DNA of 64,000 nt from Candidatus Saccharimonadales bacterium (GTDB lineage Bacteria > Chloroflexota > Dormibacteria > Aeolococcales > Aeolococcaceae): NCBI GenBank assembly GCA_035532495.1, contig DATKQX010000082.1:4399-68398 (forward strand), read 5' to 3'. The position numbers and the translations under genes were made by a program. Shown here in pieces: positions 35,134 through 49,053 of this stretch. The notes under the pieces were generated by a model. The model did no database searches and was not told where the DNA came from. It saw nothing but the letters and a program-made list of their open reading frames with translations. Positions within the stretch are counted from its first letter, which is position 1. Each line of letters starts with the position of its first letter.

Positions 35134-36744
35134 TCAGTACTCCGGCATCGGCGGAGCCGCCGACCCGCCCTTCTTCTCAGGGATGTCGGTGATCAGCGCC
35201 TCGGTGGTGAGCAGCAGCGCGGCGATCGACGCCGCGTTCTGGACAGCCGACCGGGTGACCTTGGTGGGGTCGATGATCCCGGCCTTGACCATGTCAACGT
35301 ACTCGCCCTTCGCGGCGTCAAAGCCCTGACCCTTGGGAAGGGACTTGACCTTGTCGACCACGACGGAGCCTTCCATACCGGCGTTCTGCGCGATCTGGCG
35401 GAGGGGCTCTTCGAGCGCACGGCGGAGGATGTTGACGCCGGTGAGCACATCGCCCTCGGCCTTCACGCTGTCGAGTGCGGGGATCGCGTTCACGAGCACG
35501 ACCCCACCACCGGGCACGATGCCCTCTTCGACGGCTGCGCGCGTGGCGGACACGGCGTCCTCCATGCGGTGCTTCTTCTCCTTGAGCTCGGTCTCGGTCG
35601 GAGCGCCGACCTTGATCACGGCAACGCCACCGCTGAGCTTCGCGAGACGCTCCTGGAGCTTCTCCTTGTCCCAGTCGCTGGTGGACTTGTCGATCTCGGC
35701 CTTGATCTGCTCGATGCGGCCCTTGATCGCGTCCTTGCTGCCGTTACCCTCGACGACCGTGGTGTCGTCCTTGGTGATGCTCACGCTGCGGGCGCGGCCC
35801 AGCGAGGTGAGTTGCGCGGAGTCGAGCTTGAGGCCGACCTCCTCGCTGATGACCTGGCCGCCGGTGAGGATCGCGATGTCCTGCAGCATCGCCTTGCGAC
35901 GATCACCGAATCCTGGGGCCTTCACCGCGACTGCGTTGAAGGTGCCGCGGAGCTTGTTGACGATGAGGGTGGCAAGGGCCTCGCCCTCGACGTCCTCGGC
36001 GATCACCACGAGCGGCTTGCCACTCTGGACGACCTTCTCGAGGATCGGGAGGAGATCCGCGATCGCGGAGATCTTCTTGTCGGTGATAAGGATGTAGGGG
36101 TCCTCGAGCACGGCCTCCATGCGCTGGGCATTGGTGACCATGTACGCGGAAATGTAGCCCTTGTCGAACTGCATGCCCTCGACGAGCTCCAGTTCGGTCT
36201 CCAGGCCCTTCGACTCCTCGACGGTGATGACGCCGTCCTTGCCGACCTTCTCCATCGCATCTGCGACGGTCTCGCCGATCGTGGGATCAGCGGCGGAGAT
36301 CGACGCGACCTGCGCGATCTTCTCGCGCTCGGAGATCGGGATCGACTGCTCCTTGATGGCTTTGACGATCGCCTCGACGCCGAGCTCGATGCCCTTCTTG
36401 AGCTGGATCGGGTTGGCGCCGGCGGCCACGTTCTGCAGGCCGGCTGCGATCAGCGCCTGCGCAAGAACGGTGGCGGTGGTGGTCCCATCACCGGCAATGT
36501 CGTTGGTCTTGCTCGCCACTTCCTTGACCAGCTGGGCGCCCATGTTCTCGAAGGGCTCCTCGAGCTCGATCTCCTTGGCGATCGTGACTCCATCGTTGGT
36601 GATGGTCGGCGAGCCGAACTTCTTGTCCAGCACGACGTTCCGGCCCTTGGGGCCGATGGTGATCTTCACGGCGTCCGCGACCCGATCGACCCCTCGTTTG
36701 AGATGGGCGCGAGCCTCGACGTCGAACAGCAATTGCTTGGCCAT
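35134..36744 (-). CDS. groEL: chaperonin GroEL (stand-alone, no adjacent groES)
   Basis: 536 aa. [39 protein letters not shown]...[14 protein letters not shown] and a C-terminal Gly/Pro/Met tail. AGGAGG lies upstream of the ATG. Confidence 0.97.
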
Positions 36745-36789
36745 GGTTCCTCCTGGTATGTCCTCTAGCCTTGGGTTCCAGGGGTTAGT

Positions 36790-36839
36790 TTAGCACTCGG
36801 CTCGGCAGACTGCTAGCGGGTGGCGGCGGCGAGTGCTAA
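36790..36839. promoter_or_regulatory. CIRCE (HrcA operator) with atypical geometry
   Basis: TTAGCACTC sits at 36790-36798. After 9 nt comes GACTGCTAG (36808-36816, 7/9 match to GAGTGCTAA). A perfect GAGTGCTAA follows at 36831-36839, giving a 32-nt spacing. The element lies 46-95 nt upstream of groEL. Confidence 0.8.
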
Positions 36840-36901
36840 GGCGCTGGGGCACGCGGAGCGACAATGGAGTCAGCAGCCGTGGCCGCTACCGTCTCGTCAG
36901 C

Positions 36902-37324
36902 GTGACGTCTTCCGTGATCCGATACGGAGAACTGCCAGGCGTGCCGGTGGGTTCTGTCTTTTCAAGCCGACAAGCGCCTCGGGAAGCCGGCATGCATCGG
37001 CCTCTTCAGGCCGGCATCGACTTCGCCGCCGGCCAGGCCGCGTCGTCAGTCGTCATGTCCGGTGTCTACCCAGATGACGATCAAGGCGATGTCGTCATCT
37101 ACACAGGTCAGGGTGGGCTCCAGCCCGGAACGTCCAGGGCGATCGCGGATCAGAAGCCGATTCTCGGAAACGCGGGTTTGATTCGCTCCCGACACTTTGG
37201 CGTTCCGGTTCGGCTTGTCCGCAAGGTCGGGCTCACCGTGCAGCGTGAACGGCGCGCATCCCGATGGCGCGTTGCCCGCGGGCGCCTGCGGCACATGGCT
37301 GTCGCGGTCTTCGAGGAGGTCGAG
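36902..37324 (+). pseudogene. SRA/YDG (5-methylcytosine-reader) domain ORF, apparently truncated with no effector domain
   Basis: From GTG 36902: IRYGELPGVPVGSVFSSRQAPREAGMHRPLQAGIDF...SVVMSGVYPDDDQGDVVIYTGQGG...DQKPILGNAGLIRSRHFGVPVRLVRK matches SRA motif blocks 1-2. The YDG-type third block is absent. The frame has no stop until 37789, but beyond about 37325 it is antisense to a better-supported minus-strand gene. About one third of third positions are A/T (hand count over roughly 108 codons). Confidence 0.55.
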
Positions 37325-37720
37325 TCACATCTTGACCTTGCCGCGCAGACGCTCCACTGCCTCCGCAAGGTCCCACACCGTCTCGAGCGCACGGTTCAAC
37401 TCGGACGCCGTCGGCGGCAACTCATAGACGCGATGGTGGCAGGCACTGGAAAGGGAGTTCCACGTCAGCATCGCGCGCCCGCCCAGCTCTCGGTCGTTGA
37501 GCATGTCGCCGACGCACAGCAATTGACAGCGCGTCGAGGTTCGTTCCAGCCCGGGTGCGGTGGCCTGCCACAGCCGCACCATGGCAAGCTCCAGCCCCTG
37601 GCGCGCAAGCAGTGCCGCGGCTCGAGGCCACAGCCCTGCGGTCGTCGCATCGTCATCACGGATAAGATCACGCGCTGCGGACACGAGCGCATGCGCGTCC
37701 ACCACCGGCGCACCACGCAT
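37325..37720 (-). CDS. 131-aa all-helical protein, putative paralog of the ATPase C-terminal domain (HEPN/DUF4145-like features)
   Basis: Its ATG shares one nt with the ATPase stop (TGATG). Minus-frame third positions are much more G/C-rich than the overlapping plus frame. Motifs R40-Q-G-L-E44 and ACHH (94-96). Confidence 0.7.
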   Translation of the reverse strand: MRGAPVVDAHALVSAARDLIRDDDATTAGLWPRAAALLARQGLELAMVRLWQATAPGLERTSTRCQLLCVGDMLNDRELGGRAMLTWNSLSSACHHRVYELPPTASELNRALETVWDLAEAVERLRGKVKM

Positions 37721-40158
37721 CAGTGCGCCTCAAGCATCTTCGTGGTCAGCTGCTCGACGCTGCGGATGAACTCGCGCATGTCCCCGTAGACCTTCCCGCT
37801 GTGCGTCCCGCGGTTGCACTCCTTGACTGCATCGACGGCCCACGGGTGGTGCTTGAATAGATACGCCGCGACATCCCCGGCTCGGTCAGCATCGTGCAAC
37901 AACGCGAGCGCCAGCCACATGTTCAGCGTGGTCGGCTTCTGGAGCGTCGCCTCGACCTCGGCGTACGACCTGCCCTGACGCAGCAGATGCCGCGTCGCGG
38001 CACGTGACGAGGCCGCCTCGAGCGCCAGCCTACAGAACCCCGGCACGACACGGAGCGCCTCCGCGGGTAGATCTCTGCTGTTCGCAACAGCGAACGCATC
38101 GTCGATGTAGCGCTGCACGGGATCCTGGATCCGCCGCAGCTCCACGACCGATTGGTCACGCCGCACCACTTCGATCACCGTTGCCGCAATATCGAGCGCA
38201 CTCATCGCATCGGCCAGGCGCGTGTCATGTGTGAGGACGATCACCTGGCGCTCCTTCGCGGCGCGAGCGAGCACCTGCGCGAGCCCCGCGACCTTGGCCG
38301 GGTCCATCGCCTGTACCGGGTCGTCGATGACCACGAAGCGAAACGGCGACTCCGGCATCGACGCGCGCGGCAGAAACAGCGACAGAGCAAGGCAGTTGAG
38401 CTCACCCTGGCTCATGACGCCGAGCGCGGATCCATCCTCGCCATCGACCTTGACGTCGAGCGACAGACGGCGCTGTGTTTGCGCGCCGCGCAGGCGCAAC
38501 TCTCCAAGCGAGACGTTGCTGTCCTGGCGCAACTGCGTCCAGTTCTCCTGCACCGCGCGGGCGATGGGACGGAAACGCTCGTCGCGCAACTCGTCGTGCG
38601 CATCCTTCAGCCAGCGCTCGGCGTCCTTGAGTCGAGTGACCTCGTGCTCGGCCCCCTGCGCACGGCGTCCAAGCGGCAACCACAACGCAATGGCGTCCGC
38701 AGCGGGCCGCCAGGCTCGCTCCAATCGCTCGAGCTCGGCGGCTGCGGCGCGGCGAAGGTCGCCGACCGCTGCGATGAGCGGTGGTCCATACGTTTCGAGA
38801 TGGCTGGCCAAAGCGAGCGCGTCATCGTCCGCGGCCACGCCGGACCACTGCTCCCAGACCCGGACCGCTGGGTCGATGTCGATCCCCGCCCCCGCGCTGT
38901 CGCGAAGTGTTCGCAGCGGTGCGGTCACGAGCTGCCTCGCCTGCCGCATTGCGTTGTCGAGCATGGTGTGGGCCTTGCGCACCGCTTCGGCGTCCGCTCG
39001 GAGCGCCACCATCTCGTCGCGCGCCCGCACACGCCACTGATAGGTGAGGACCCCTTCGGAGCCGCAAACGGGGCACCGTTCACTCTCCGCGTGCGCATGC
39101 ATGTCGAGCGCCTGCTGGAGCAGCGACGCCACGTCGTGCGCTCGTCCCGCATCGGTGCTGCGCAATCGCTCAGCGGCGCCGTGCGCGTCGCGCAGCTCAG
39201 TGATCGCAATGTTGACGCGCTCGCGGTCCAGCACGGGCAGGCCGGCGAGGTCCCGGAGCTTGCGGAGAACGATGCTCTCGTCACTCTGTGCGTCACCACC
39301 GACGGTGCTCGCAACCACGCCCAGGTCCCACGCCTTGGACGCGAGCGCCGCGCGAACCACGTCGGCACGTTCATCTGTTGTCCGCTCGAGCAGCCCGCGC
39401 AGCTGCGGTACCGCATCGCGCGCCGCCTTGATATCGTGCTCGCGATCCAGGCGAGCCTTCTGCAACACCTGCTGCGCCGCAGCGAGATCACCGAGCCCCA
39501 GGATGCCGGCGACCGCGTCATAGAGCTTCGACTGCTCGCGGTCGAGCGCATGCTCGAGCTCGTTATGCGAAAGGAGCGGCGGGTAGCCCGCGAGTTGTTG
39601 CGTCCACCCGAGGGAATCCGGTGACGCCACCTTGCCGTCGACGGTCAGCGTCGAACCCTCGACGCCGTCGCCATCTTTCCAGACTCGCGCCACGTCGAGC
39701 GCCTGCCTGCGTCCGTCGATGGCGAAGCGCGCGGCCACCCGCGTATGCCGGTGATGCAGGTTCTGCCATCCGTCGCGCCACACCTTGACGCGCTGTTCCC
39801 AGCGCTGGTTGGTGCCCAGCAACACCATTTCGAGCGCTTCGGAGAACGACGACTTCCCCGAACCGTTGCGGCCGACGACCAATGTCAGTCCGGGTCCCGG
39901 ATCGATGTGCAGTGTCGCCGGTGGCCCGACGCCCCGAAAGCCCTCGACCTCGATGGCGGTGAGGTACGCCGCCGACGGCGCGGCCGCCGCGGCGATCTGC
40001 GTTGCGGACGCCGCCGCCGAACCCTCCTCACCCCGCAACGCCGCATCGACGGATGACGCACCCTGGAAGGCGGCGATGATGAGGTCGGCCGCGCCGGGCG
40101 CCGGTGGATCTGAGTCGATGCGGTCGACGACGAGGGCGAGCAGCGCGGTATCAGGCAT
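37720..40158 (-). CDS. SbcC/Rad50/RloC-like ABC ATPase with CxxC zinc hook and extra C-terminal helical domain
   Basis: 812 aa. Walker A GRNGSGKSS (aa 96-104), long helical insert with CPVCGS (aa 362-367), signature SQGELNCLALSLFL, Walker B FRFVVIDDP, H-loop VLTHD, then a helical tail of about 130 aa (aa ~683-812). Confidence 0.85.
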   Translation of the reverse strand: MPDTALLALVVDRIDSDPPAPGAADLIIAAFQGASSVDAALRGEEGSAAASATQIAAAAAPSAAYLTAIEVEGFRGVGPPATLHIDPGPGLTLVVGRNGSGKSSFSEALEMVLLGTNQRWEQRVKVWRDGWQNLHHRHTRVAARFAIDGRRQALDVARVWKDGDGVEGSTLTVDGKVASPDSLGWTQQLAGYPPLLSHNELEHALDREQSKLYDAVAGILGLGDLAAAQQVLQKARLDREHDIKAARDAVPQLRGLLERTTDERADVVRAALASKAWDLGVVASTVGGDAQSDESIVLRKLRDLAGLPVLDRERVNIAITELRDAHGAAERLRSTDAGRAHDVASLLQQALDMHAHAESERCPVCGSEGVLTYQWRVRARDEMVALRADAEAVRKAHTMLDNAMRQARQLVTAPLRTLRDSAGAGIDIDPAVRVWEQWSGVAADDDALALASHLETYGPPLIAAVGDLRRAAAAELERLERAWRPAADAIALWLPLGRRAQGAEHEVTRLKDAERWLKDAHDELRDERFRPIARAVQENWTQLRQDSNVSLGELRLRGAQTQRRLSLDVKVDGEDGSALGVMSQGELNCLALSLFLPRASMPESPFRFVVIDDPVQAMDPAKVAGLAQVLARAAKERQVIVLTHDTRLADAMSALDIAATVIEVVRRDQSVVELRRIQDPVQRYIDDAFAVANSRDLPAEALRVVPGFCRLALEAASSRAATRHLLRQGRSYAEVEATLQKPTTLNMWLALALLHDADRAGDVAAYLFKHHPWAVDAVKECNRGTHSGKVYGDMREFIRSVEQLTTKMLEAH

Positions 40159-47736: not shown

Positions 47737-49053
47737 GTGAGCAAAACCATCAGCGAGGATGTCGGCCACCGCATCGAGGAGCTCTCGGCGCAGATCCATG
47801 CCGCCACCGCAGAGCTCGTGCAGTTGAGTGCCGAGTACGACGATGTCGGCGGCTGGCTCGGTGTCGGCCTTCGATCCTGCGCGCACTGGCTCTCGATTCA
47901 CGCCGGCGTCGATGTCGGAACCGGAGCGGAGATGGTTCGCACCGGGCACGCGCTCGAGGCGTTGCCGCAGATCGCAGAGGCGTTCGCCGAGGGCCGGCTG
48001 TCCTTTGACAAGGTTCGGAAGGTCACGCGCGTCGCCGTCCCCGAGGACGAGCAGGTCTGGCTCGATGTCGCGCTCAACGCTTCGGGTGGTCAACTGAGCA
48101 GGATCTGTCGTGCGGTCGCAAGCGCACTCGATGCTGCCGACCCGCTCCTCGCCGGGCACGCGCTCCAGCTGCGCAGCCTGCGGATGTGGTGGCGCGACGA
48201 CGGGATGCTCCAGGTGATGGCGGCGCTTCCCCGGGAGGACGGTGCGGTCTTCCAGGCAGCGGTCGAGGCAGCTGCCGCCGCGCTCGTCTCCGAGCTGCGT
48301 TCAGCGCCCCGTGCGGTCGATGGGGTCGACGATCCCACCGAGTTGACGTGCGACGTGCTCCGCAGCGATGCGCTCGTTCGCGTGTGCGAGGAGTGGGTCG
48401 CCAGCGTCTCGAAGACGCCAACTCCCGCGCCGACACGCCAGGTCGTCGTCCACGTTGATCAGACGGCGCTCGTCACGCGCGACCCGGCCGCGCGCTGCCA
48501 CATCGAAGACGGGCCCTGGCTCCCGTTCGATGCTGCGCAATGGCTCAGCTGCGACTCCGATGTCGTGTCCGTTCTCGAGCGCGACGGCAAGGTGCTGGAT
48601 GTCAGTCGAGTACATCGCGTGCTCTCGTCGCGTCTGCGTCTTGCGTTGCAAGCTCGTGACCGAGGGTGCCGGTTTCCGGGATGCAGCGTTCCTCCGCCGC
48701 GGGCCGAAGGACACCACATCAAGCACTGGGCTCATGGCGGTCGCACCGACATGGACAATCTCGTATCGCTCTGCCGGTTCCACCACCGGCGTCACCACGA
48801 GGGAGCGTTCGAGATCCGCGCCGTGAGCGGCGAGCCCATCCGGTTCGAGCTGTCGGACGGGACCGTGTTGCGGCCTGTCGTCGCACTCCCCAGTCCGGGA
48901 CTGACGTCGAACCCGAATGTGGCCGCCGATGCGGCGATCGCACTTGGTCGCGGCGAGTATTTCGATCGGGACCACGCTGTCAGCGTCATCGCTGACGCCT
49001 GTTGGACGAGACGCGCGGTGGTACGTGAGTTGGATCGCGGCGGGGGCGACTAG
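47737..49053 (+). CDS. DUF222-domain HNH endonuclease (13E12-repeat-like family)
   Basis: N-terminal DUF222-like helical region and C-terminal HNH (GCRFPGCSVPPPRAEGHHIKHWAHGGRTDMDNLVSLCRFHHRRHH). Confidence 0.85.
   Translation: MSKTISEDVGHRIEELSAQIHAATAELVQLSAEYDDVGGWLGVGLRSCAHWLSIHAGVDVGTGAEMVRTGHALEALPQIAEAFAEGRLSFDKVRKVTRVAVPEDEQVWLDVALNASGGQLSRICRAVASALDAADPLLAGHALQLRSLRMWWRDDGMLQVMAALPREDGAVFQAAVEAAAAALVSELRSAPRAVDGVDDPTELTCDVLRSDALVRVCEEWVASVSKTPTPAPTRQVVVHVDQTALVTRDPAARCHIEDGPWLPFDAAQWLSCDSDVVSVLERDGKVLDVSRVHRVLSSRLRLALQARDRGCRFPGCSVPPPRAEGHHIKHWAHGGRTDMDNLVSLCRFHHRRHHEGAFEIRAVSGEPIRFELSDGTVLRPVVALPSPGLTSNPNVAADAAIALGRGEYFDRDHAVSVIADACWTRRAVVRELDRGGGD

Follow-up and report, generated by a model that had tools for sequence, protein, structure and literature searches.

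A probable remnant of a TagI-like SRA-HNH restriction gene in the variable gap beside groEL of a Candidatus Dormibacteraeota genome

Introduction

What is an open reading frame that begins as an SRA domain and ends antisense to another gene? The question is raised by one continuous plus-strand frame in the stretch of 64,000 nucleotides analysed here as a whole (the window), which lies beside a minus-strand pair of genes encoding an ATPase and a 131-aa protein. A sequence-only reading of this DNA had left two answers standing: a remnant of a methyl-directed restriction gene, disrupted when the ATPase genes arrived as a cassette, or a short SRA-only sensor converging on that cassette. The SRA-HNH family, with TagI, ScoA3IV and TbiR51I, consists of restriction enzymes dependent on 5mC or 5hmC (PMC6212794).

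We consider it highly probable that positions 36902-37230 are a pseudogene, made up of the first 110 codons of a TagI-like type IV SRA-HNH gene and shaped by two deletions at microhomologies. Such a remnant belongs to a known enzyme family and implies no new mechanism; its interest is that of a small and clean example of how type IV restriction genes come and go in the uncultured phylum Candidatus Dormibacteraeota.

Domain content and composition of the open frame

The frame 36833/36902-37789 (plus strand) is a single open one, with its first listed start at 36833 and its stop codon at 37787-37789, and GTG 36902 is the start supported by homologs, the same start position being used in P0002 and P0045. 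A profile search of the 318-aa frame, proposed earlier as a means of defining where homology ends, returned Pfam SAD_SRA (E=1e-25, 90.6 bits) over residues 31-132 (nt 36923-37228), not over the whole frame. The match covers profile positions 2-106 of 148, so that the window copy holds an incomplete SAD/SRA domain (PF02182, 148 positions), and the Pfam search of the 318-aa frame found no further domain, neither HNH nor another nuclease; the C-terminal HNH domain (beta-beta-alpha-Me; HNH_2, PF13391) is absent. The previous description of an SRA frame devoid of its YDG block and of a nuclease is borne out by the alignment itself: where intact homologs read ...FGVPVRLIRKVG-R.FRYDG.Y.V..., the window reads ...FGVPVRLVRKVG-LTVQRERR... 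(PVRLIRKVG-R.FRYDG versus PVRLVRKVG-LTVQRERR), with FRYDG lost.

The frame at 36902 is the only SRA match in the entire 3.3-Mb assembly, and the missing part is not to be found nearby, as residues 111-289 of P0002 and P0003 (the C-terminal 179) gave no significant match near the locus in a search of all frames. The segment 36849-36901 (plus strand) is upstream DNA native to the SRA-HNH gene, collinear with the sequence that precedes the intact genes in L074, L075, L059 and L060. A scan of 36650-37900 for promoters and terminators returned nothing informative, and an exact look-up in the protein collection found no record of the ORF product, although the start residue and the stop may have spoiled this comparison.

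The base composition of the fragment had been noted before as unusual, with about one third of third codon positions being A/T, and this is indeed the case: A/T occupies 33% of them, and GC3 of codons 1-111 is 0.667, below the neighbouring genes (GroEL 0.894, ATPase 0.815, HD_4 0.833, 131-aa gene 0.765) and below the 48 long ORFs of the window (0.81±0.04, minimum 0.70). Two causes had been offered, horizontal origin and relaxed selection. Since GC3 is low in the intact SRA-HNH copies too (0.71-0.73, and 0.78 in L082, with 0.80-0.92 in their neighbours), the low value is a trait of the SRA-HNH gene family, which it marks as compositionally foreign, and not a sign of decay. The composition is consistent with the first of the two causes, in the form of a horizontally moving defence gene.

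Intact and broken relatives

When the SRA part was compared with 5.8 billion proteins, the 43 best matches were all SAD_SRA+HNH_2 proteins, mostly 287-290 aa long. The SAD_SRA match, an amino acid identity of 72-91% to 289-aa relatives of this architecture and nucleotide homology to seven copies together identify 36902-37230 (plus strand) as SRA-HNH codons 1-110, or about two thirds of the SRA domain. Intact P0002 covers SAD_SRA profile positions 1-146 and carries HNH_2, and its residues 8-279 align with TagI (6GHS), the closest solved structure, at E=3e-55. An AlphaFold2 model of P0002 from an alignment of 13 sequences had a mean pLDDT of 39.8, too low to be of use; the Pfam profile and the TagI alignment were relied on instead.

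The intact orthologs of the fragment are like TagI in aligning over both domains and in carrying SAD_SRA and HNH_2, whereas the window copy ends at about TagI residue 112 and has neither the final third of the SRA domain nor a linker nor any of the HNH nuclease. What it does keep is the N-terminal part, in which the predicted base-flipping residues of TagI are located, namely Gln35 of the thumb, Ile38, and Tyr55, Asp58 and Tyr67 of the pocket (PMC6212794): through the P0002-TagI alignment these correspond to Q36, I39, Y56, D59 and Y67 of the window, all retained. The intact relatives also match the SRA chains of UHRF1 and SUVH5 (E=1e-17 to 4e-20), which belong to the same fold family. These eukaryotic SRA/YDG domains are complete stand-alone readers within larger regulators, in contrast to the incomplete barrel of the window, which has no partner domain.

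Orthology is indicated by position as well as by sequence, with intact position-matched copies in L059, L074, L077 and L082. In related Candidatus Dormibacteraeota DNA an intact SRA-HNH gene occupies the same site, divergent from groEL. The 132.9-kb ENA contig L059 reads groEL (-), SRA-HNH (+), DUF222, a PIN/Phd pair with other genes, the 131-aa gene, the ATPase and HD_4; G052 (L077) has groEL, an intact SRA-HNH (93% to P0002), DUF222-HNH, the 131-aa gene and the ATPase. The 5' end of groEL is followed in L074 by an SRA-HNH gene whose SRA part is 91% identical to the window, then by a 226-aa gene (-) and a 423-aa gene (-), while SRA-HNH is directly convergent on the 423-aa gene in L075 and adjoins groEL in L082, a more distant Dormibacteraeota MAG. 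The comparison of related genomes suggested by the sequence-only reading shows both the intact gene (L059, L074, L075 and G052) and a near-empty gap (G019, 170 bp).

The related SRA-HNH copies seen comprise four intact and four broken ones. Those of L058 and L076 are frameshifted, and in the metagenome contig L057 (2140-2192) an internal deletion joins ...VIRK out of frame to the HNH motif PNDHVLFDFGAIT, its left break lying about 5 nt from that of the window; the resulting SRA-only ORF is P0044, of 150 aa.

Structure of the junctions

Alignment to full-length homologs, likewise proposed before, places the break precisely. Nucleotide homology to L059, L060, L074, L075, L076 and L058 stops at 37230, and that to L057 at 37226. 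The ORF had been taken to end exactly where the ATPase cassette begins, the single point of fact on which the earlier description needs correction; its SRA homology ends at 37230, not at 37324, and the 94 nt in between consist of two pieces of different origin. The first, 37231-37279 (minus strand, 49 nt), is an internal scrap of the 423-aa gene, about codons 301-317. It shows 88-92% nucleotide identity, in antisense, to the interior of that gene in at least nine relatives; its minus-strand translation, AGNAPSGCAPFTLHGE, corresponds to about residues 301-317 of the copy at L046 4797-6068; and a search of the window's own genome (G000) with the 423-aa protein recovered this scrap only (aa 298-321, E=9e-5). 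The second piece, 37280-37324 (minus strand), is the native 3' flank of the 131-aa gene: from about 37280-37288 homology resumes with L046 6124-6166 and with L071/L051, through the spacer between the 131-aa and 423-aa genes and then into the 131-aa gene itself.

The bases shared at both junctions amount to 1-3 nt only. Microhomology of this length is typical of illegitimate recombination. The first deletion measures 1549 bp by comparison with L074 and 860 bp by comparison with L075, and the second 963 bp by comparison with G004. Given the limits of homology and the native flank, two microhomology deletions (of about 0.9-1.5 kb and 1.0 kb) explain the structure.

A likeness of the tail to the intact protein, QRERRAS..RWR resembling FRERPASDGFLRWR, was considered and rejected as due to chance. 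Nucleotide homology ends at 37230 in seven of seven comparisons, the C-terminal query alone has no match there, and the same 49 nt match the 423-aa gene at 88-92%.

The remainder of the frame, 37231-37789 (plus strand), is a non-homologous tail, codon-aligned in antisense to the 131-aa gene. That the frame stays open to 37789 while running antisense to this gene had been observed correctly, and the reason is simple: TTA, CTA and TCA are not used as codons in the 131-aa gene, and the antisense frame thus meets no stop. In G004, which lacks the SRA gene, this antisense frame is likewise open (L046 6110-6610). The frame to 37789 is a shadow ORF.

Proposed history of the locus

How could such an arrangement have arisen? 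We infer the number and order of the events. The ancestral layout, which persists in close relatives, is groEL (-), SRA-HNH (+) and then, all on the minus strand, an optional 226-aa gene and the 423-aa, 131-aa and ATPase genes. A first deletion, starting at codon 111 of SRA-HNH and reaching about codon 317 of the 423-aa gene that converges on it, would have left SRA-HNH without the final third of its SRA barrel, without linker and HNH nuclease, and without a stop codon. A second would have taken 60 nt of leader from the 423-aa gene along with its codons 1 to about 300. Each would be the product of illegitimate recombination at 1-3 nt of microhomology, the 49-nt island of the 423-aa gene surviving between the two junctions. 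With its stop codon lost, the SRA frame would run by chance into the antisense frame of the GC-rich 131-aa gene, and so end at 37789.

Because the nuclease is absent and the barrel incomplete, the remnant would be without restriction function; for want of the nuclease domain, cleavage of 5mC- or 5hmC-containing DNA by the window copy is not expected. The 296/318-aa ORF should thus be annotated as a pseudogene fragment rather than as an 'SRA domain protein'.

The retained 110 codons contain no stop and no frameshift and preserve all of the predicted base-flipping residues, which counts against the pseudogene reading. With L059 as outgroup, the window copy has seven unique amino acid replacements and L074 has two, an excess that is not significant (chi-square about 2.8); two of the seven, L26P and L52M, fall in columns conserved to at least 95% in 40 homologs, and the excess may be a weak sign of relaxed constraint. 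Pairwise dN/dS against intact copies is low as well (0.05-0.08), a further point against decay that mostly reflects the history before the deletion, and these values make it probable that the deletion is young compared with the split from L074. The notion that loss of SRA-HNH was driven by a C5 cytosine methyltransferase found no support in a search of five genomes for PF00145, which was not found in G000 (86% complete) and was present in G004 only.

Alternative explanations

Could the truncated copy still be a working protein? A functional short SRA-only protein, acting as a 5mC/5hmC sensor, decoy or regulator and kept for its surviving base-flipping pocket, thumb and finger, seems to us very improbable. 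Since every TagI pocket residue is retained in the fragment, as are those of the thumb (PMC6212794), the pocket furnishes no argument against function; the profile, however, ends at position 106 of 148, and the two long C-terminal beta-strands (FRYDG... and RWRYELR) of the distorted barrel are missing. The frame is intact and its native upstream region is kept, but its 185-aa tail derives from antisense sequence, and the invariant positions at L26P and L52M have been replaced. An independent deletion, that of L057, does yield another SRA-only product in P0044, yet this ORF runs out of frame into HNH-coding DNA and so is a pseudogene too. Nor is there a family of such proteins to which the window copy could belong: among 5.8 billion proteins, restricted to lengths of 78-247 aa, no natural stand-alone SRA family of about 140 aa was found, and the four matches are all pieces of broken SRA-HNH genes, namely P0044 (internal deletion), P0045 (frameshift), and P0041 and P0042 (N-terminally cut). 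The earlier suggestion of a short SRA-only sensor is not supported on these grounds.

The proximity of the window and L057 breaks raises the prospect that the truncation was not random. Both fall just after ...VRK(VG), and both copies keep the complete base-flipping pocket and lose the nuclease. The coincidence could mean that nuclease-less SRA stubs are selected, for instance as 5mC-binding decoys or regulators, or that this codon is a hotspot of deletion, although we give such a non-random origin only a slim chance. The L057 break, some 5 nt away, may be either coincidence or the mark of a deletion hotspot; if stubs were selected, this might have happened once the restriction activity had turned harmful.

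A further concern is the assembly itself, a MAG of 169 contigs and 86% completeness, which might have collapsed or chimerised strains in a contig whose real genome carries an intact gene. No second assembly with the same junction was found in two metagenome scans with junction-spanning patterns, which returned nothing or chance matches of 21-24 nt. However, the two junctions are clean, each sharing 1-3 nt of microhomology, and enclose a 49-nt island; the contig around them exceeds 64 kb and is syntenic with relatives on both flanks, no repeats able to drive a collapse are present at the junctions, and comparable scraps of the 423-aa gene occur in five other genomes, near-closed ones included. 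An artefact is accordingly hard to believe in, and two deletions in a real genome remain the preferred explanation.

The gap between groEL and the ATPase gene pair

The deletions in the window affect a region that varies throughout the genus. Its left anchor is groEL (35134-36744, minus strand, 536 aa), which is 98-100% identical at the amino acid level to the copies of relatives, followed by the conserved groEL upstream region (36745-36848, no strand assigned), which includes a CIRCE-like operator (36790-36839) and is conserved even in the 'empty' gap of G019. Positions 36600-36848 show 96% nucleotide identity to G004 (L046), and this homology ends at 36848. The right anchor is the conserved 131-aa gene (37325-37720, minus strand), with 79-94% amino acid identity in 12 of 12 relatives examined, beyond which lies the gene of an 812-aa SMC/ABC-type ATPase (37720-40158, minus strand; Pfam SMC_N, AAA_21 and AAA_23).

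The ATPase is present in all 42 genomes of the genus (73-88% amino acid identity), always beside the HD_4 gene, and the 131-aa gene follows it in 12 of the 12 loci inspected. As the two genes occur in synteny in 42 of 42 genomes, they are ancestral in the genus and not arriving. The idea that an intact SRA-nuclease gene was split by the insertion of an incoming ATPase cassette, suggested by the SRA frame abutting the 3' end of the minus-strand ATPase/131-aa operon, is practically untenable, given that the syntenic pair accompanies both intact SRA-HNH genes (G052, L059) and the near-empty gap of G019, that the remnant is separated from the 131-aa gene by a scrap of that gene's usual downstream neighbour, the 423-aa gene, and that searches of the assembly and of the window did not find the 3' half of SRA-HNH beyond the cassette. 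The first of the two original answers is thereby divided: the methyl-directed restriction remnant stands, on the evidence of position-matched 289-aa orthologs, whereas its disruption by the arrival of a cassette gives way to deletion. The local history is corrected to one in which the ATPase/131-aa pair is old and genus-wide, and it is the ground up to groEL that turns over.

The extent of this turnover is seen in the distance from groEL to the 131-aa gene: it is 580 bp in the window, against 170 bp in G019 and about 950 bp in G043, seven others have 2.9-5.9 kb, and in three it exceeds 5.5 kb. About 20 of the 42 genomes carry an intact 423-aa gene, whereas in G008, G010, G013, G044 and G045, as in G000, short scraps of it are left; deletion at this gap is therefore recurrent. 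Depending on the species, the gap holds SRA-HNH, another HNH_2 protein, DUF222-HNH, a PIN/Phd toxin-antitoxin pair, PLD+ResIII or almost nothing, and further cargo includes an ADP-ribosylglycohydrolase-phosphatase fusion, the 226-aa and 423-aa genes, TetR, SDR and an ABC permease. Hotspots of variable defence and mobile genes between conserved core genes are a general concept. The present gap is like them in carrying different cargo in different species, and unlike them in that no integrase, tRNA or att repeats were seen and in that housekeeping-like genes (TetR, SDR, ABC permease) occupy it in some species, so that it is not purely a defence island.

Several other features of the region deserve mention. 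The CIRCE-like operator upstream of groEL combines a perfect left arm, TTAGCACTC, with a degenerate right arm, GACTGCTAG, at 9-nt spacing, and a perfect right arm, GAGTGCTAA, follows 14 nt further on. This split arrangement is conserved in G019, G004 and L074, and is thus a trait of the lineage rather than a recent insertion. Matches of the ATPase to PADLOC are partial only (mads3 1e-24, LmuB 2e-21). The 423-aa gene has no Pfam, PADLOC or PDB match, and a putative PD-(D/E)xK-like motif (GDF...VEAKSG) was recognised in it by eye; the TY-Chap3-like 226-aa gene comes next after it (L046 4117-6068 region). The ATPase, 131-aa, 423-aa and 226-aa genes could form a four-gene operon, the two distal members of which are often lost.

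The slot from the CIRCE region to the stop of the 226-aa gene is filled by SRA-HNH in L074 (279-1118), and the same slot holds a 488-aa fusion of ADP-ribosylglycohydrolase and dual-specificity phosphatase in G004 (L046 2639-4105), G014, G024 and G054. From the orientation and borders that the two genes share, the exchange looks like a cassette-like swap. A weak HNH-motif match to the nuclease part of SRA-HNH at 48667-48840 of the window (E=0.003-0.05) belongs to a DUF222-HNH region and is unrelated to the remnant. In G014 the gap also carries a restriction-like gene for a PLD-like nuclease and ResIII helicase (L045 5328-6500), cut off where the sequence examined at that locus ends. Finally, at least five genomes (G003, at L049 1955-3013, and G013, G020, G051 and G055) have in this gap the other HNH_2 endonuclease, of about 311-398 aa, whose N-terminal domain of about 220 aa is unrecognised and of which the HNH part alone resembles SRA-HNH/TagI, at 35% identity; it may represent a further nuclease dependent on modification, equipped with a new reader domain.
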